Source: Paecilomyces variotii
Lineage: Eukaryota
Strand: one strand, 5' to 3'
Length of the DNA stretch: 64,000 nt
Assembly: GCA_004022145.1 (NCBI GenBank)
Contig: RCNU01000002.1
A program made the translations under genes and the position numbers. The notes beneath the pieces are model-generated. The model did not search any database, had not been told where the DNA came from, and was given only the letters and a program-made list of their open reading frames with translations. Of this stretch, positions 43,200 to 58,933 are shown piece after piece (positions within the stretch are counted from its first letter, which is position 1; each line of letters opens with the position of its first letter).

Positions 43200-44122
43200 A
43201 CCGAAGACCACAGGTTGTCAACGAACTTAACGTGTTCACTTGGTTGTGATATTATATCGTCCAGCAGCTGAATATGTCAAGAGCATACAAGAGCATATTG
43301 ATGTACAGATTCGAGTCCGCTCTTTGAAAGGATTCAAAGATTCTTTTGCCATATATACTATTGAAATCTATTGGAGCTACAGACCACTCTACTCAAAGGA
43401 TATATCTCCTATTGGTCATCCTACAAAAATATAAATGGATATTCAGTGATTGATCAACTAATGTGTTATTGTATTACGGTAGTATTACCGTAAATGGACG
43501 ACGGCGGCATCGATTATCTGTATTATCGCGTATTCCGCATCAACTTCAGCCTTGTTCGCGACTCCGCAAAAGCGGAATTCACCATTTACTGTCTGCGTGT
43601 AGTCGAACTCGATCAAGCTTGATTGAGACACTCCATGTGAAACAATATTCTAAATTCTATGCTATCAACCCGAATTCTCTACGACTCGCCATACGTCGTT
43701 TAATTACTTGTCCCGCTACTTCTGTCACCCCCGCTTGTCTACCCTGCACGATCGACCGACCAACATCTCGACTCCGATGACCTCCGCCACCCCTTCCCTG
43801 GGCCCTTACTCCTCGTCGCCTGCTTTCTTTCTACCTGCACTCAAATTCGACGCGACCGTTTAGATATTCTCTACGCCTACCGCGTCTCACCACGACGATT
43901 GGAACTCGTGTTCGGCTTCCAGCTCGGAAGCTGGGACCTTTGTCCCCTTTACTGAGCTACGCTCACCCACACAAAGCCGTATCATTCAAAGTTTCTGTGC
44001 CTTGTTTGACGGTATCCGCATCACGATCCTTTCCTGTGAGCCTTGACAGATTTCTCTGCAGTTGGATAAGCGCCAGACAACTGCAGACTTTCCATGCAAT
44101 CTTACCTGCGGCCGAAAACATC

Positions 44123-45538
44123 ATGAACCATACTACGCCTTCTCCCAGTCCGCCGCCAACACATTCCTCTCCGGCCCAAGGGACCCCCCACAGTGTTGCT
44201 GCAGGTGCAAAGCGGAAGCGAAGCTCTGGCAGTAAATTCTATGCCGTTAAACTTGGCTTTCAGCCCGGGGTGTACTATAACTGGAATGATTGCTTGGCGC
44301 AGGTGACGGGATACAAGGGAGCTGTCTGTGAGTCTGTCGCAAATTGATATCACTATTATTTTGATAAGCCGCTTTTTTTTCCCTTTCAATTGCGGGGTCT
44401 TTTATCCGGAATGATAAATGCTAATCGTTTTTCTCTTCCTACAGTCCAATCATTCCCTACTCTCGAAGAAGCCAATGCTTTCCTTACAGGTACCAGGCTG
44501 CCTGGTTCTCAGAACACAGCATCTTCAGGGGCCGACAACACACGGTTTTATGGCGTGCAACGAGGCCATAAACCCGGTGTCTATACGGATTGGGCCAAAG
44601 CCCAGGAGCAGATACGGGGATTTGTGCGGCCGAAATACAAGAAGTTTTCTACGCGGGTAGAAGCCGAGGAGTTTGTCCAAAGCGGACAGGAACAACCTTC
44701 GACATCGGTTAGCATTTCACAAGTAAAGGAATTGCCAGGATCGGCTGGCTTGACGTCTGATAATCCTAAGGATGACCTTGGCTTCGATTTGGAGCCGGGA
44801 ACTGGCCCTCTTCCGCCTGGTGCGGAGGACGGTTTTGATCCCAATGTGCTCTTTGACCCGACTACGGGCAGGATTGTATACAAAACGAAAGAACAGAAGA
44901 CTGCAACCAAGACGAGGCCGACGGGATCACCGCCCATGTTAAACATCTATACGGACGGAAGTTCTCTGCGGAATGGTTCAAAGATAGCATCGGCTGGAGT
45001 CGGTGTCTACTTCGGACCCGGGGATAAGAGGCATGCAACGCTCTTCCTGAGTTTTCTTTTGGTCCAGTCTTACTGACACACCTCCTTTCTCAGCAGAAAC
45101 GTCTCGGAGCCGTTGAAGGGCAACCGCCAAACCAACCAGCGAGCAGAGCTGTTTGCTATTCTGCGAGCTCTTGATATTGCACCTCGCCATCGAGATGTCA
45201 CCATCTTTACTGATAGTAGGTACGCTATTGACTGCGTCACTGTATGGTACATCAAGTGGCGGCGTAACAAATGGATGACGGCAGACCACAAGCCTGTTGA
45301 GAACAAGGACCTGGTCGAATCAATCCTGGTCAAGATCGAGGAGCGGAATGAATTGAAAGTTAAGACTCTATTTCAATGGGTGAAGGGACACAATCGTGAC
45401 CATGGAAACGAAGAGGCTGATCGACTTGCGGTCAATGGTGCTCGAAGAGGTGTTACAGAAAAGGCGGAAGCACTGGCAGTAGCCCAGAATATCGCTGATG
45501 AAGGGCTTGAAGAAGAGTTCCAGGACGATTTGAATTGA
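44123..45538 (+). CDS. rnh1: Ribonuclease H1 with two N-terminal hybrid-binding domains; 2 introns
   Basis: KFYAVKLGFQPGVYYNWNDC and RFYGVQRGHKPGVYTDW (HBDs); catalytic IYTDGS, TNQRAEL, FTDSRY, WVKGH..GNEEADRLA. Confidence 0.95.
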
Positions 45539-49992: not shown

Positions 49993-52706
49993 TTAAGGGT
50001 TGCTGATTCGTTGATAGAACAGGAGATAAGCGACTTTGTTGTCACGGCTGCCATACCTCCCGATGGGCGTTCGGACACCTGAAGATGCTGGCGACGCAGT
50101 TCCGTTCGCGACTACAGCGGCAGCGGTTGATTTCTTGCTCGAATGACCGGACCCACTGCCGTTGACTTGGTTCCAACCCTTCTCGTTGTCGACGCTCTCG
50201 TCGTCTTGGTCGAACTGGTCGTATATATTTGCGTTCGGGATCTTGTCGCGCTTGTGCTGCTCAAGCGCAGCAGCAACAACCTTGGGATCCTCCTCACCAC
50301 CAGCCTCAGCGACGTCTTCGCTTCGGATGCGGCGAATAACAGTATCGTCTAAACGAATCCATTCACGGCCGTCCTGGCGGCGGACATCGACAGTGTAATG
50401 ACCACCGCTCGCATTTTTGCCGTGATGATAGATTACACCGATAAGTCGGTATTTCGGCAATCCTCCTTGCGCCGTTATAGCATTGCGCCGATGCGGAGGG
50501 AAGACCTCACGGGGAATTTCAAGATCGAGTGGATAGCCGATTTTCTTCCAGATCTTCTGAGTGCCCCTGGTAACGCTGTCATATTGGAAACGTTTGAGGT
50601 GCAAAATGAGGACGGGTGGCAGGGTTTCAATGAATATCTGCTTCGTTGCGGTTGCATTAGGTCCACGTGCAGAGCTAAAGTCGCCATGGATAGTTTCTGG
50701 CTTCGTCAAGCCTTTCAAAGCATCGACGATGTTGTTGACTTCAGGAGATCCGATGTCAAGTTGCAGAGGTTGATATGGTTCCAAGGTCACGGAATTCTTG
50801 TTCCCGGGGACTCTGAATTCTGACCTGATCTTTCCCCCAAAGATCTTCGTAATAGGCGATTCCAGGGCAATATGCCCTGAGGATCGAGTAACAGCAGCCT
50901 TTTGCTTGTGGCCAACTTCCAACCACCCGTCTGCTGACGGCTCTTCGAAAGTAGCAGTGGATTCGACGTCCGCGGACGCAGACACATCAGATCCAACTGC
51001 ACCGGCAGCCTTGGCAGCCTCAGTACATTCCTCATGGAGTTCCTCCAGGAGGAATCCCAAGAACTCCTGGGCATCTTGCTGATGACCACGGCGCATATCA
51101 CGGAAGCGAGGCAGCTGCCTAATCACCTCATAGACATATTCAGGGGAGAATGCATCGCCGTACTGCTCCAATTCGTTTTGTTTGAGTCGCAATTTCAACT
51201 GCTCAGTCGATCGTGCTGCGTCGATGACTCGGAACTCCCGCATAAACATAATCATAGCATCGATGAGAGGAACGTCGCTTTTGAAACTATGAGCAGCTCG
51301 TCGACCGACATGTTCCAGGAACTGATAGAACGGAATGCAAAAAACAAGAATCTGTAGGACCGAATTCATGTAACACATGTTTCCAGTATTTACAAGTCCC
51401 CTGGGCTCGAGGAATGCAATCTTATCGCTGTACTGATCGACATCGGCTCCTAGGTCCTTGAGGACCTCTGCAAGAGTCTGGCTTCTGGACACAGCCAGAC
51501 CACTGCCTTCAGTAGATGAAGGCGTAGGAACTCCTGCATTCCGCGAAGCGGATTTTGACTTCACAAGGTCAGCCCAAGATTTAGGAGCTGGAGGCTGAGA
51601 AGCAGGCTTTGCTGGCTCTTCGACGACATTAGTTGATCCCGTCGTAGTCGCTTCCGCAGAGGCGTCACGAGATGAGTCAGCACCATTCTCGTTGGCCGTC
51701 GTAGAGGGACGACCAGAACCATCCTTGCTCTGCTGTCGGTTCGTGGGTGATTGTGCGACAATAGGGACCACAGGGATGACGGGCACCGCAGGTCTGGAAG
51801 CACCGGAGCTTTTTACAGGTACTTGTGGTTGTGCCTGGTTCTGAGGGCGGCTGGTTGATTGAGGGACTGCAGACGAGGGAGTTGTGGGCTGAGTTGAGGC
51901 AGTCTCGGATGGGGCATGTGAGGTAGTAGGTGTCTGGGGCTCAGAAAGCAGGGGAGCTGAAGACTCTGGTGCCTTGACTGGTTGTTCGTTGGCCGTTTCC
52001 TGCGAGCTTGGGGTGTTCTTCACGGGAAGTTCCACGGACACAGACTGCAGGGTTCGACCCTTTCGGCGTCTGCGAGGGACTCTAGCAGGGAAAGGCGCAC
52101 TGGGAACAGAAAGCCAGGGAACCTAGATGACCTGTCAACAGATCGTTCTTATACTACTTAGAGTAGATAGGAGATACTCACGGGTGCACGAAAGGGCTCT
52201 CGAACAGCGGGGACTAGCTTAAGAGCATCTGAGGACTGCGAAGGCGTGGTTGGCGTTGGAACTGGATTGACCGTATGGCCGATAAGCGGGTTTTCGTGAG
52301 CAACCATCTGGCTGGGAGCGGGCACGGGCGGCGACGGGGACATGGTTGGTTGAAAAGGAGTCGAGGCAGCCGTCCTCGGTTGCAGAGGAAGCGAAGGAGG
52401 TGGAATATGGGCCGGTGCCATCACAGGCTGCGTATGAGGATACGAGGAGACGATCAACGGTGCATACGGAGGCTGGTATGGACGTGGAGGAGGCTGCATC
52501 TGCGGGTAAGAATACCAGTGCGGGTACTGTTGCGGCGCATACGCAGGAGGAAGATGACCGTTGAGATGAGGCGGATGATAGCCCATGTATGCTGGCGGAG
52601 AACGTATATTAGGAGGCCCAGTTGAGTAGGGAATCTCATGCTGCCGTCTTGGAGGAGGCATGGGCGGCTGCCCATGGGGCATGGCGGGCAGATGATGGTT
52701 CATCAT
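49993..52706 (-). CDS. ubp3: Ubiquitin-specific protease Ubp3 (USP10 orthologue); intron 52123-52181
   Basis: Pro/Gln-rich N-terminus; PKSWADL; Cys box PRGLVNTGNMCYMNSVLQ; QQDAQEFL; SVTLEPYQPLQLDI; His box YHHGKNASGGHYTVDV; AYLLFYQR. Confidence 0.9.
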
Positions 52707-53416
52707 GTCCAGGCACTTGGTGCGGTTGTCCTGACTGTTCAGCCACGCGTCGCCTCAATGGGAGCCATACAGATACGGTGGATCAGAGGCAGGACAGCAG
52801 ACCTTGCACTGGCCTATTCAGCCATTCTGAGCGCAAGGTCAGACGGGGAGGAGCAGATGAGGGAAGACGTTGGAGAAGGTTGAGTCGCAACGAGCTGAAA
52901 AAGGGATCGTTAGTTGGGCTGTTTGACCGCCAGGAGAGCCAGGAAGGGAGGAAGTCAACTAACCAGGACAGACAGGAGATCCCAGCCAAAGATATATCTC
53001 CGCCAGAACAGGGGAGATCCAACGATGCTGACCACGGCGACGGCGGAGGCTTGCGGGCGACGATGGAGATTCGCCAGCGAGTTTGCATGATGTTTTTGGG
53101 GAGGTCGCGGCACGTGCCTGAGGCTCTGGGCGCCAAGAGATGACATACATACTTGCGGTTCGCCCCTCGAGATCTCTCGCTTTCCCCCTCAACCCCTCGC
53201 CCCTCGGGGTATTCTATACGATCTATCTATCTATACTGTCTCTTGTCCTGCTCCTTTTATGACTCTCTATCGTTCCTTTCCATCAGGTCCTTTACCGTCC
53301 TTGGAGGGATCAGTCCCTCGGTTTGTCGCTCTCTAGAGTCCGTCATCCCCCGCCATTTGCGCTGACAAAACGGAGAGCGAGAGCAAGATAGCAAGGCAAC
53401 CAGACAGGTCTGAGAG

Positions 53417-55775
53417 ATGTCGTCCAATCTAGGGCAAAACCTGGGTCCTTCGAAAGCAATCAATATCCCCAGTCCATCCGCCTCAGCGACTTTCCATTCC
53501 AGCCATCCTCAGGTTGATAGCGGATCTCAGCGGCGTCCGGGAGGCTCAGGAAGCTTCGGCGCAGGGTCAACGTCGAGGAATACGCCGTCTCCAAGGAACA
53601 ATCAATCCCGAAAGACTCAACACAAACGTCAGAGGCGTCCACGTTTGGTGGATGAGGATGCATACGCGGAGTCTGTAAGTTGCCCCTGATTCATTCGTAC
53701 GGGCCTTCTGCAGTTTGCAATCCAACATTGGACGCTTTTGAACTGCCTCTTCATATCGTCGTAACACAATGCTAACTCTTACGTTTTCATTCGAGTAGAC
53801 CATAATGAGGTCCACTACGAGTCGCAAAGGACAGACGTCCATAACCCATCTGATGAACTTTGCTCTCCCTCCACGTCCCCAGTATCAGCCGCAACCCCAT
53901 CGCAACCACCGTCGATATCCAGCCTGGGGTCTTGGATCTGGGTACCATGCCGTGGATAAAGCCCGATATGTCCATGCCAATTACAGATTTATCGTCAATC
54001 CCACGCGCGATTACCATGCCCAGGCCTCCAATGCTGATGTTCACTTGGATTGGGACTCGGTTCTCCAAGTCTTGGTATCCTCTCAGACCCAGGCCGCCAG
54101 TTGTCCGATATGTCTAGAAATACCAGTGGCGCCACGGATGGCAAAGTGTGGCCATATATTCTGTCTTCCCTGTCTGATCCGATACATGCATTCGAGTGAT
54201 GACGAAAGCTCGCAATCAGCCAAGAAACAGCGGTGGAAGAAATGCCCGATATGTTACGACACCATATACATATCGGAGACGAGGCCGGTGAGATGGTTCT
54301 CCGGTCAGGAGGGCGATCTTCCTGTCGAAAACGGCGATGTGGTTATGAGGTTAATCAAGCGTGAGCCCGGCAGTACGCTGGCTCTTCCGCGCGACGGGGG
54401 CGAGAGTCTAGCTTCTGTTGACGATATACCTTGGTATCATGTCGCAGAAGTTGCAGACTATGCTAGGATTATGAAAGGAGGCGAAGACTATATGATGGCG
54501 CAGTATGATACCGAAATCGAGCAACTCAGAATTCAAGGGCAGGAAGATAATCTCCTCTTTGGTGACGATACGACCTGGACTCGGAAAGCTATTGGCAACA
54601 TCTACGAAGCTAAAGAGAAGATAAAAGGCATTGGCAATCCGCCAGACATGTCTCGAGTGCCAGTGGAGAAACGACCTCAAAAGGAGCCCATCAACTTCGA
54701 ACCCCCTCCGGACGGCGTTCCGGATATGTACACCTATGAGCACGCCACCAAGTCGGGCCAGGCATCGTCAGCCGAATCTGTCGTTGTTGCGGATACGGCA
54801 AGCACTTCCCCTACATCCGTCGAGACAGATAGACTTTCATCTGCAATGTCGAATCTGAAAGTTGACCCAGCATCTGAAGCCAGGTCTCAAGGAAATGCTT
54901 CTCACTCTGCTGTCACTCCTAGCGCGTCGCAACACGCCAAAGATACCAATCGTCCCCACCCTCCGGACCAGCCATTCTATTTCTACCAAGCCTTACCGCA
55001 TTACTACCTCTCCCCTCTCGATATTCGCATCTTAAAGGCTGCATTTGGTGATTTTTCGCTTTTCCCGGCCACCATCCTTCCTCGCGTAGAGCATATCTCG
55101 ACAGGTCATGTGGTGGACGACGAGCTGCGCAAGCGTGCCAAGTATCTGGGCCATCTTCCATACGGTTGCGAGGTAAATTTCCTAGAGTGTGACTGGAGGG
55201 ACCTAGTTAGTCCCGAAATACTTGACCGGTTCCGCGGAGAGACCGAGAAGAGGCGGAAGCGAAATCGAGAAAAGGAAGTCCGTGAGGAGAAAGAGCGGAT
55301 TCGTGCCGAGAAGGAAGAGGAGAAGAACTGGGCCATCGCTCGTCGAAAAGGATCCTCTGCCGGTGTAGGCCCGAGTGATCAGCCCATCTCCGATCGCGAC
55401 TTTCTGCCATTATCGAGTGCGGTAGGCGATCCGTCTTTGGGTGACTTGGGTCCTTTGTCAGCATCGCCCCCTTATACGTCCAACATGGAGTCACGCTTCA
55501 GCGCTTTAGCGTCGCCTTCGACCAGTCCGTCTGGCCCTCGGACGGTCTGGGGAACTGCAGCCGTGTCATCCACATCTCCACCCGACGCTGCTCCTCGAGG
55601 TCCTGCCCACGATGGCTGGTTGCAAGGATGGGAAGACCACTTGTTGGAGGAGCAGCAAGAGTTGTGGGCGCAAGCCGCTGCCGGCGGAGGCAGCGCCTCT
55701 GCCTCTTCCGGTAACAGGAAGAAGAAGAACAAGAAGATTACGTTGATGTCGACCAATATCCAGCGAGGTGCTTGA
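53417..55775 (+). CDS. mag2: RING E3 ubiquitin ligase Mag2 (RNF10 orthologue); one intron (~53675-53798)
   Basis: SITHLMNF; DKARYVHANYRFIV; DVHLDWDSVLQV; C3HC4 RING CPICL..RMAKCGHIFCLPC..WKKCPIC; FYFYQA..YYLSPLDIRILK; KYLGHLPYGCEVNFLECD; C-terminal KKKNKKITLMST. Confidence 0.88.
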
Positions 55776-56953
55776 ACTAGCGGGTCGATCTCCGTTTTCT
55801 CTTCCCCTTGGGATTTCTTTAGCGGTTTAAAGTGTTTCTCAGGACATCGATGAAATCCTGCCGGGATCATATCTTCTTTTATTTTTTTTTTCTTTCTCTC
55901 GCCCAGGGAATCCCCTCTCGCCTTGTCACCTTGGAGTAGAACTTAGTCTCCACGGTTCTTGAGGTTAACTTTCCATGCTTCAGCAATAGAAAATGCTATA
56001 CACTCTAGTCGAGATACTAGACACGGCACGACACGGCAAAAGCCCAGGATTATATGAGATGAAGGCCTGATGAATAAGCCCTGAAGTAAGACTAACAATA
56101 GCTTATGGACAATTTACAACTCGGTTAATAATTTAGATGTGGTGCTTGGAGAGATAGGAAGGGGTACCTATATAAAGAAGCCTCTCACACGGGGTTGGCA
56201 AGTTCTCTAAAGTGAATTATATCCGTGATCTGCGTTATCGCTCCGTCAGTCCACGGGTTCTTAGACGAGTACAAGCTGATACTTCATTGCAGTTGGAGTG
56301 AGAGGATTATTATGACTTTTTTATCTTGTGCACGCCGCTCTCTTGAGAGCAGTCTACATGGTTAACCACTATATAAAGAAATTTGAAAAAGAAATTATCA
56401 TACCACTTGTATTCAATCCCTTGGATCGGCACAATCCCTATTGTACGCCAAGTACATGGAAAGGTAAAGCCACGAATTTCCGCCCCGAAAGCACCGAGAT
56501 TATTCTGGTGCAGACATCAATTACTCTTGATTAGACTCTCCCGGCGACCGAGGAACCCGTGGCTTAAATTTCCCCGGTACTTATTCAACTTCAAAGCAAA
56601 CACTCGAAAAGGAAAATTCACAACAAGCACATTCAGTCTGGCTGTCGACGCGATATCCGTAATCGAGTTTGATTCTCGAGGAGGCCAAGAAGAACAGAAT
56701 ATAAATCCACCCAACGCATGACAAATAATGATCTGCATTGGCATAGTTATTTATTTATCTAAATGCGTTAAGGCAGATCTGGTGTGGCGCGGGTGCGGAG
56801 TGCTTTTAACTAGTCTCCAAGGCCAGGAACGCGCCCGCTAAGTAGTTAAGCTAAATCTGTACTGTACATGTAGCATCATCCTTTTCCTTTTTCTCCGTCC
56901 CTCCTTCTTCACCACGATTTGACAAGGCGACACACATGGGCCAGGCTGACAGG

Positions 56954-58933
56954 ATGAGAGTCACCCGTTCTCAGACGGGGAAGACCCCGAAGTAAGTGTA
57001 TTTGTCCTTCTTACACCGTTCGAAAGAGAAGAAAAAAGTGTCCCGCCGCGGTTGCAGCCCCCTGTCCATTATTGTCTGGGGAATTTATCTTGACTAACTC
57101 GCGACTTGCGTCTGATATAGGAAGGCTGAACGTCCTGGCTTCGTAGAAACGCCAGGCGCTCGACGTGTGACGCGCAGTCGGGCTTCAATGACCCCCGATC
57201 CCAGTGCAGACGACGCGTCCGACTCGACGGCGGAGACCCGTTCAGTAGCCAAATCCTCGTCGCGCCGCCGCACAACTGCGCAGGTGAAGAAGGAGGAAGA
57301 AGAAGAGGAGGAGGAGTCACTGGTTGAAGACAAGGTCGCCGTGGAGACCAATGGCAAAGCCAATGGGCATGCGAACGGACACGTTAAAAAGGAGGCCAAA
57401 ATCATTGACGGATGGGTAGAGGGCACGGATCCCAAGATCGACTATAGCGGACACTTCGAATTTGGAGGCTCCTGGGGTGTGCTCGCCATGATGATAGGTT
57501 TCCCTCTGCTCATGTACTACATGTGGATCGGTGCGACGTACTATGATGGGAAATTCCCTATCCGGGCTGAGGGCCAGAGCCTGCCTGACTTCTTTGCGCA
57601 TCTCGCTCACCTGGTCTACGAGGGCGCGTTCCCTTCACTGAAAGCTTGGGCGATCTACTGGGGATTCTTCATCTTCGAAATGATCTGCTACTTACAGCTG
57701 CCCGGAATCACCCTCATGGGCCGTCCGCTCCCGCACGAGGGCGGAAAGCAGCTGCCGTACTACTGCTCAGCTGTGTGGTCGTTTTACACCACTATCGTCG
57801 CTGCGCTCGCGCTGCATTTCACCGGTCTTTTCAAGTTGTACACCATCATCGACGAGTTTGGACCGCTGATGAGCGTGGCTATCATCTCCGGTTTCCTGGT
57901 CTCCTTCATTGCATATTTCTCCGCCCTCGCGCGTGGCCGACAGCACCGTATGACTGGATATCCGATCTATGACTTCTTCATGGGGGCGGAGTTGAACCCT
58001 CGCATGTTCGGCCTCCTCGACTTCAAGATGTTCTTCGAAGTCCGGTTGCCCTGGTATATCCTGCTCTTGGTTACTCTCGGTGCCGCGGCGCGTCAGTATG
58101 AGACTTACGGCTACGTTTCTGGCGAAGTTGGCTTCCTTCTCCTGGCGCACTACCTGTACGCCAATGCTTGCTCAAAAGGCGAGGAATGCATCATCTCGAC
58201 ATGGTAAGACTGGTTTCTTCTCTATCGGGTTGTTTAACAAAGTTACTGACCGGTCCTCAGGGATATGTACTATGAGAAATGGGGCTTCATGCTCATCTTC
58301 TGGAATCTGGCCGGTGTGCCCCTGAGCTACTGCCACTGCACAATCTACTTGGCCAACCACGATCCTGCCACCTACCGCTGGAACAGATTCGCGCTGGCAT
58401 TCCTGTACATTGCGTACCTGTTCGTCTACTGGATCTGGGATACAGCCAACAGCCAGAAGAACCGCTTCCGCCAGCAGGAGCGCGGTACCCTGGTTTTCCG
58501 CAAGACTTTCCCACAGCTGCCGTGGCAGACGGTGCAGAACCCCAAGACTATCAAGTGCCCTCAGGGTACGATCTTGGTCGATGGGTGGTGTAAGTGCATT
58601 CAATAACGATCTCTTTCCATATCCAAGATGCTGACATGATCAACGAAAAAGATGGCCTGGCCCGCAAGATCCACTACACTTGTGATCTCTACTTTGCCTT
58701 GAACTGGGGTCTTATCACCGGTTTCCAGAGCCCCTTCCCATGGTTCTACCCGGTCTTCTTCGCATGCATGATTAGCCACCGCGCTCTGCGTGATATCCAG
58801 AAATGCCGTGCCAAGTACGGCGATGCGTGGCTCGAGTACGAAAGACGCGTGCCATATCTCTTCATTCCTGTAAGTCTCATTCCTTTTTTTTTCGTAAGAT
58901 TTGTTCCCTAACCCACTCTAGTATGTTTTCTAG
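56954..58933 (+). CDS. erg4: Delta-24(24-1) sterol reductase (C-24(28) reductase), 5 exons; an in-frame ATG at 56936 is an alternative start
   Basis: [88 protein letters not shown]. Confidence 0.95.

Follow-up and report, generated by a model that had tools for sequence, protein, structure and literature searches.

The two divergent genes

In this work we analysed a pair of divergent genes of Paecilomyces variotii, one for a deubiquitinase of the Ubp3/USP10 type and one for a RING ligase of the Mag2/RNF10 type, which lie in a stretch of 64,000 nucleotides of contig RCNU01000002.1 (this whole stretch is called the window below, and positions are counted from its first letter). The genes stand head-to-head, with the start codon of Ubp3 at 52706 on the minus strand and that of Mag2 at 53417 on the plus strand, 710 nt apart. 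An earlier note, made from the letters of this DNA, had read the locus in the same way, and our results agreed with it on both counts: the gene identities were borne out by Pfam matches (UCH and RING), by named matches and by full-length similarity, and the head-to-head layout by the coordinates, with RNA backing both introns. We consider it nearly certain that the Ubp3-Mag2 pair is real and conserved.

The Ubp3-like gene spans positions 49993-52706 of the minus strand and, as judged from its open reading frames (ORFs) and their translation, codes for 884 aa and contains one intron. Exon 1 (52182-52706, 175 codons, beginning with the start codon) is Pro/Gln/Tyr-rich; an intron of 59 nt (52123-52181, GT..AG on the minus strand) separates it from exon 2 (49996-52122, 709 codons), which contains the UCH domain at about 50305-51402 and is followed by the stop codon at 49995-49993. 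The Pfam family UCH (PF00443) was matched by residues 241-606 of the Ubp3 translation P0001 (4.1e-46, 158 bits, cut-off 23.9), and since this match spans profile positions 1-246 of 254, the protein carries the domain of USP/UBP deubiquitinases. Stretches near residues 248 and 576 of P0001 resemble a Cys box and a His box, which we take them to be. No Pfam family was found in the N-terminal 415 residues of Ubp3, at which no search for a Bre5/G3BP (NTF2 domain)-binding motif was aimed.

The names among the 120 best matches of Ubp3 included UBP3, "ubiquitin carboxyl-terminal hydrolase 10" and "probable ubiquitin carboxyl-terminal hydrolase 3", the last being the name of the Schizosaccharomyces pombe Ubp3. 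Solved structures of other USP families scored only about 72 bits against it, and the matches among solved structures were all of a generic USP or RING kind, with no USP10 catalytic domain and no RNF10/Mag2 entry. Among the matches listed for Ubp3, the sole cluster with a non-fungal commonest phylum was a chordate "USP10" cluster (0.91), which is a lead and not a proof. On the basis of full-length similarity and of the names given by the sources, that is, by annotation transfer, the minus-strand gene is assigned to the Ubp3/USP10 orthologue group.

The Mag2/RNF10-like gene, likewise defined by its ORFs and translation, occupies positions 53417-55775 of the plus strand and codes for 744 aa, also with one intron. 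Exon 1 begins with the ATG at 53417 and ends at 53674 (86 codons, a 100% match to residues 1-86 of the database protein P0005). It is followed by an intron of 124 nt (53675-53798, GT..AG) and by exon 2 (53799-55772, 658 codons), with the RING at about 54102-54254 and the stop codon at 55773-55775. P0005 is 100% identical to the window Mag2 and of equal length (744 aa); in general, P. variotii database proteins match both window genes at 99-100%, which puts the window in Eurotiales. The RING, at residues 102-152 of P0002, was found by the Pfam families zf-C3HC4 (4e-07, 30.2 bits, cut-off 21) and zf-C3HC4_2 (1.2e-07), and its residues C102, C105, C149 and C152 were invariant in all 43 aligned family members. 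In these 43 representatives two more blocks are conserved beyond the RING, an N-terminal one ahead of it and a C-terminal one at about residues 395-466. The set includes S. pombe P8B7.23, the Sugiyamaella protein "Mag2p" and Aspergillus and Talaromyces proteins named "MAG2" or "Rnf10"; the window protein matched the S. pombe one (P0287) with E 4e-93 and the Sugiyamaella one (P0304) with E 1e-68. The same two kinds of evidence, full-length similarity and source names, assign the plus-strand gene to the RNF10/Mag2 RING ligase family. By analogy with the yeast and human literature, the window Mag2 would mono-ubiquitinate uS3 (and uS5) on the 40S subunit.

The spliced RNA evidence came from contigs of the runs X9 and X10, which belong to two studies, and both predicted introns were exactly skipped in contigs of both runs. 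Runs X7 and X8 gave unspliced contigs over the whole stretch and were uninformative on transcription. Past the Mag2 stop codon, RNA contigs of X9 and X10 start at 55877, preceded by a loose run of T, and the contig of X10 extends to 56234, where a loose run of A closes it. The stretch 55877-56234 may represent the Mag2 3' untranslated region (UTR) including the poly(A) site; alternatively, it may be a short transcript of its own, on either strand.

Retention of the pair across ascomycetes

Metagenome contigs were scanned with an alignment of 15 Mag2 sequences, which gave 261 confirmed matches, and the best 80 of them were taken together with up to 10 kb of flank. These 80 loci were searched with the Ubp3, Mag2, ERG4 and Na/H-exchanger proteins of the window and grouped into 48 lineages at 90% Mag2 identity. 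Only lineages with at least 4 kb upstream of Mag2 were counted for Ubp3, which left 25 of the 48, the flanks of the other 23 being too short. Ubp3 was found upstream of Mag2 on the opposite strand in 24 of these 25 evaluable lineages; the beginning of Ubp3 is also visible in two lineages (L004 and L044) whose flanks were too short to be counted. The Ubp3 matches in the loci were full-length and colinear and scored 530-1078 bits, in comparison to about 72 bits for other USP families.

Class labels were given to the lineages from the nearest named Mag2 proteins, from a FastTree phylogeny with named references and from NCBI lineages. The pair was present in 3/3 lineages of Eurotiales, in 3/3 of a clade sister to Eurotiales and Onygenales (other Eurotiomycetes), in 7/8 of the Lecanoromycetes/Candelariomycetes-like group, in 4/4 of Leotiomycetes and in 7/7 of Dothideomycetes. 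The pair has been kept as one unit through the leotiomyceta radiation (Eurotiomycetes, Lecanoromycetes-like fungi, Leotiomycetes and Dothideomycetes).

A second test used named genomes, namely 15 species in which both proteins have ordinal locus tags from one assembly. The tags of Ubp3 and Mag2 were consecutive in 14 of them: Rasamsonia, Aspergillus melleus and seven Penicillium species, together with the Onygenales Polytolypa, Helicocarpus, Emergomyces, Onygenales sp. PD_40 and Myotisia.

The earlier note had proposed to set the decay of this adjacency against that of neighbouring pairs such as mag2-erg4, and the comparison came out in favour of Ubp3-Mag2. The downstream control neighbour of Mag2, which is not part of the pair, is the sterol reductase gene ERG4/ERG24 at 57188-58908 on the plus strand (Pfam ERG4_ERG24, 4.7e-73). 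ERG4 was found downstream of Mag2 in 13 of the 28 lineages with at least 3 kb downstream (Fisher p = 7e-5 against the 24/25 for Ubp3). When only the 22 lineages evaluable on both sides were compared, 21 had retained Ubp3 and 10 had ERG4 downstream (Fisher p = 6e-4). The Na/H exchanger gene, which is the other neighbour of Ubp3 in the window, adjoins Ubp3 in only 1 of 16 evaluable lineages. As the lineages are related, event counts on the tree are a fairer comparison than lineage counts. On the Mag2 tree the fewest changes required were one for Ubp3-Mag2 (26 lineages with the pair and 1 without, short-flank positives counted) and seven for Mag2-ERG4 (16 with, 15 without). In four lineages (L020, L039, L059 and L073) ERG4 is instead located past the 3' end of Ubp3, in minus-strand orientation; this switch of side is as expected for inversion of an intact Ubp3-Mag2 block.

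These counts bear on the simplest account of the linkage, according to which it is ordinary microsynteny or chance, gene order being lost only slowly between closely related fungi. The closest metagenome relative of the window, L001, would fit such an account, as it shares all the neighbouring genes with the window. Outside L001, however, none of the remaining window genes at 30-64 kb turned up in any locus, yet Ubp3 stands in 24 of the 25 lineages over four classes. When loci of different classes were compared by tblastx, the only recurrent genes besides Ubp3, Mag2 and ERG4 were a dienelactone hydrolase (DLH) gene and one other. The account is already contradicted by the retention counts and by the tree, and we regard it as extremely improbable. 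The neighbourhood is an old, slowly decaying block, of which the Ubp3-Mag2 core is the most stable part.

Several other features of the loci were observed. The DLH gene has many introns and occurs in loci of Eurotiales, Lecanoromycetes-like fungi and Dothideomycetes (L007:15850-16920, L060:14560-16080 and 9 other lineages) and is absent from the window. The second recurrent gene is located at L018:3012-3560, L059:18440-18993 and L080:841-1393. In the window, positions 43781-45076 (plus strand) hold two consecutive ORFs, each with a ribonuclease H1 N-terminal (Cauli_VI) domain, which are common only to the window and L001. In one Lecanoromycetes-like lineage (L067/L070/L071) the neighbours of Mag2 are genes for an alpha/beta hydrolase, a pof12-type F-box beta-propeller protein, a zf-CCHC protein and a SWIRM protein upstream, and for SAE2/CtIP and RTA1 downstream.

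The spacer and its candidate promoter

The distance from ATG to ATG was 710-877 nt in the 8 lineages, from three groups, in which both starts could be aligned (710 nt in the window and 712-877 nt in the 7 others). Rough estimates reached about 1.5-1.6 kb in some Leotiomycetes and Lecanoromycetes-like loci. As a check for a hidden third gene, the 8 longest ORFs within the longer spacers were searched against Pfam, and no family was found in any of them.

On the Ubp3 side the RNA contigs end at 52998 (X10) and 53009 (X9), and on the Mag2 side they begin at 53202 (X9) and 53205 (X10), although contigs of this kind cannot fix transcript ends. The depth of X9 and X10 was also lower over 53010-53201, which is no evidence alone and a weak hint only alongside the contig ends. 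Taken together, this gives a weak hint that the 5' ends of the Ubp3 and Mag2 mRNAs are about 200 nt apart in the window.

The contig ends were also of use for the choice of the Ubp3 start codon. P0125, an automatic model of 966 aa from another P. variotii strain, places the Ubp3 start further upstream, at an ATG at 53088. Its extension amounts to about 82 extra residues, reached across 52783-53088 (minus strand) by predicted introns. The nearest relative, Thermoascus (P0126), and the locus L001 both begin at the same residues as the protein read from the ATG at 52706. We kept 52706 as the start and rejected 53088, because the latter lies outside the RNA contig ends (52998 and 53009) and the N-terminus read from 52706 is common to these relatives.

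The RNA contigs delimit a Ubp3 5' leader at 52707-53009 on the minus strand, and two short upstream ORFs (uORFs) lie inside this RNA-supported leader. The first, of 9 codons, is located at 52768-52739 (minus strand; MAPIEATRG), 62 nt before the Ubp3 ATG, and a near-identical peptide is present in 4 of 5 Eurotiales lineages; in L005 the 9-codon uORF is without its stop. The second, of 3 codons, at 52825-52814 (minus strand), is kept in all 5 Eurotiales lineages. The Mag2 5' leader of about 213 nt (53202-53416, plus strand) contains upstream ATGs and no conserved upstream peptide.

Between the two leaders, at 53010-53201 (no strand assigned), lies a candidate shared core promoter, which is delimited by the RNA contig ends of the two studies, as a weak hint, and holds a block conserved in the 5 Eurotiales lineages. 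It contains the motifs CACGTG (53111-53116), ATGACAT (53140-53146) and GCCCCTC (53162-53168), and a second GCCCCTC is found at 53199-53205. Within the conserved block (about 53105-53170) the order is constant in the five Eurotiales lineages: CACGTG, then ATGACAT or ATGTCAT, then GCCCCTC. We found 8 7-mers common to at least 6 of 8 spacers, in comparison to 0.22 in shuffles. CACGTG was present between the genes in 14 of 26 pair-bearing lineages, including 5/5 Eurotiales, 7/7 Dothideomycetes and 0/6 Leotiomycetes, and its density was 0.53 per kb between the genes, compared with 0.13 per kb in the rest of the loci. The block may be bound by a bHLH protein of the Cbf1 type, which is a guess. The layout, with divergent genes, near 5' ends and a conserved E-box block, would be the anatomy of a shared bidirectional promoter.

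Explanations for the linkage and comparison with known systems

The explanation that we favour, and that we hold to be nearly an even call, is functional co-regulation of Ubp3 and Mag2 as the reason for their linkage. If the two genes share a short regulatory region, a breakpoint there would harm both of them, and the pair would be kept for this reason. It could at the same time be useful to couple the transcription of Mag2, the writer of the mono-ubiquitin mark on 40S uS3/uS5, to that of Ubp3, its eraser, as this would match the supply of writer and eraser when the demand on ribosome quality control changes. This explanation would involve a shared promoter, co-expression and selection on the ratio of the two enzymes, and the antagonism of the enzymes themselves is carried over to the window from the literature.

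In the published biochemistry, Mag2/RNF10 and Ubp3/USP10 appear as opponents on one 40S ubiquitin mark. In 18S non-functional rRNA decay, the ubiquitination of uS3 is described as dependent on yeast Mag2, and Ubp3p is described in PMC5704183 as a deubiquitinase of Rps3p which modulates its mono-ubiquitination at K212. That yeast study pairs Ubp3 with Hel2, not Mag2. A different kind of partnership could also be considered, in which Ubp3 shields Mag2 from auto-ubiquitination and the linkage serves the co-supply of partners rather than an opposing balance on uS3. The linkage data fit such a ligase-deubiquitinase partnership too, and in PMC10878831 the deubiquitinase USP9X is a ZNF598-interacting protein linked to the abundance of this E3 ligase. 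However, for the enzymes of the present pair the published passages describe antagonism on 40S proteins and not stabilisation, and we find the partnership very unlikely.

The main rival to co-regulation, and a serious one, is passive retention, which explains most of the observations just as well. On this view a spacer that is short and contains both promoters leaves no harmless breakpoint, the shared pathway of the products is coincidental, and the ratio is not controlled. We consider this distinctly possible without being probable. The spacers are short where measurable, and according to PMC1487180 head-to-head pairs are better conserved than other gene pairs. The unrelated ERG4 gene persists as well, beside Mag2 in the 13 of 28 lineages given above and nearby in the 4 with the switched side. 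A fungal study by Kensche et al. (2008) reportedly deals with the conservation of head-to-head pairs as well. On the other side, among roughly 5000 possible partners, the one found next to Mag2 is the known antagonist on the same lysine mark, and the pair is still kept in Leotiomycetes, where the estimated spacers are about 1.5 kb.

A number of our own observations weigh against co-regulation as the cause. Of the 22 lineages that could be judged on both sides, 14 have ERG4 on one flank of the pair or the other, and the DLH gene recurs in 11 of 48 lineages, its side varying, as if this stretch kept its old neighbours regardless of their function; since unrelated genes persist nearby, retention needs no functional link. 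The pair is split in the Lecanoromycetes-like lineage L067/L070/L071, the sole loss sampled. In Aspergillus hancockii the tags 006466 (Mag2) and 007147 (Ubp3) are 681 apart, on contigs of differing size, which may reflect either a true split of the pair or a fragmented assembly. The best 80 of the 261 loci are the closest matches, so that distant lineages, including Sordariomycetes, were unsampled. The conserved promoter block is limited to Eurotiales, and CACGTG is missing from all six Leotiomycetes spacers. The RNA contig depth is unfit for ranking genes or for assessing co-expression, and one X9 contig (record 20) has 30 unaligned letters before 53202; the transcript ends are a weak hint only.

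More distant organisms speak on both sides as well. In human, RNF10 and USP10 are unlinked, on different chromosomes, and the Saccharomyces cerevisiae MAG2 is YLR427W, on another chromosome than UBP3. S. cerevisiae and human, unlike the window, keep the pathway with unlinked genes, that is, the linkage is dispensable in both, in favour of passive retention and against co-regulation. PMC3032702 gives the S. cerevisiae UBP3 as YER151C and names it as the homologue of the S. pombe ubp3, SPBP8B7.21. The S. pombe protein O94271, "Uncharacterized RING finger protein P8B7.23", is in the cluster of P0287, a match of the window Mag2. The orthologues of both window genes are thus two systematic numbers apart in S. 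pombe (SPBP8B7.21 and SPBP8B7.23), a likeness to the window, and the chance of two given genes lying within two positions is about 8e-4 for one pre-specified pair. Unlike the window pair, however, the two S. pombe genes are not adjacent, one gene standing between them, and not head-to-head; their names are without the "c" suffix, which by the naming convention should place both on the same strand. On the gene in between, SPBP8B7.22, nothing was found in the literature searched, and nothing useful on SPBP8B7.20 or SPBP8B7.24. The S. pombe case is one of linkage, not of a shared promoter. It counts against the co-regulation that we favour and also against passive retention, as a shared promoter cannot explain it. 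For two other fungi, gene numbers from the literature allowed us to look at one side of UBP3: the neighbour of Magnaporthe oryzae UBP3 (MGG_05996) is MGG_05995, a translin-family protein, and that of Cryptococcus neoformans UBP3 (CNAG_06920) is CNAG_06921, the homeodomain gene HOB3, and neither is Mag2. The numbers on the other side, MGG_05997 and CNAG_06919, did not occur in any of the literature searched.

Co-regulation could be extended to a wider proposal, which we regard as unlikely. The linkage would date from the common ancestor of fission yeasts and filamentous ascomycetes and would have been actively kept for a locked eraser:writer ratio from one promoter. The Ubp3 uORFs would tie the synthesis of Ubp3 to 40S scanning and re-initiation, the process that Mag2/RNF10 monitors, and the whole would be a self-adjusting ribosome quality-control module written into gene order. 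The conserved uORFs of the Ubp3 leader by themselves raise the idea of uORF control of a ribosome quality-control deubiquitinase, which is worth testing.

The question is of wider interest because ubiquitin marks on the 40S subunit decide between rescue and destruction of a stalled ribosome, and the balance of ligase and deubiquitinase is unsettled. The retention of the pair extends over several hundred million years, and a gene order that has held both enzymes on one short spacer for so long is a natural experiment. Should the linkage be under selection, coupling at the level of transcription would be one of the ways in which this balance is set, and an opposing writer-eraser case would be added to a catalogue of bidirectional pairs dominated by subunits of one complex. 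If it is passive, the locus would still be of use as a marker for very old microsynteny in Pezizomycotina. The earlier note knew of no description of this linkage, and no paper describing it was found in our search of the full-text literature, outside which lie subscription journals and supplementary files.

Among known systems, the human enzymes RNF10 and USP10 of initiation ribosome quality control (iRQC) belong to the same two families as the products of the window pair; the work consulted on them does not deal with gene order. In its gene layout the pair resembles the fungal histone pairs H2A-H2B and H3-H4 and the niiA-niaD pair, which are likewise divergent, have a short shared spacer and have been retained for long. 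Classic bidirectional pairs code for components of a single complex or for consecutive steps in a pathway. Unlike these, the products of the window pair would act against each other on a single substrate. Ubp3-Mag2 is a new and well-supported example of a familiar kind of gene arrangement, the conserved head-to-head pair, and its opposing writer-eraser content is unusual.

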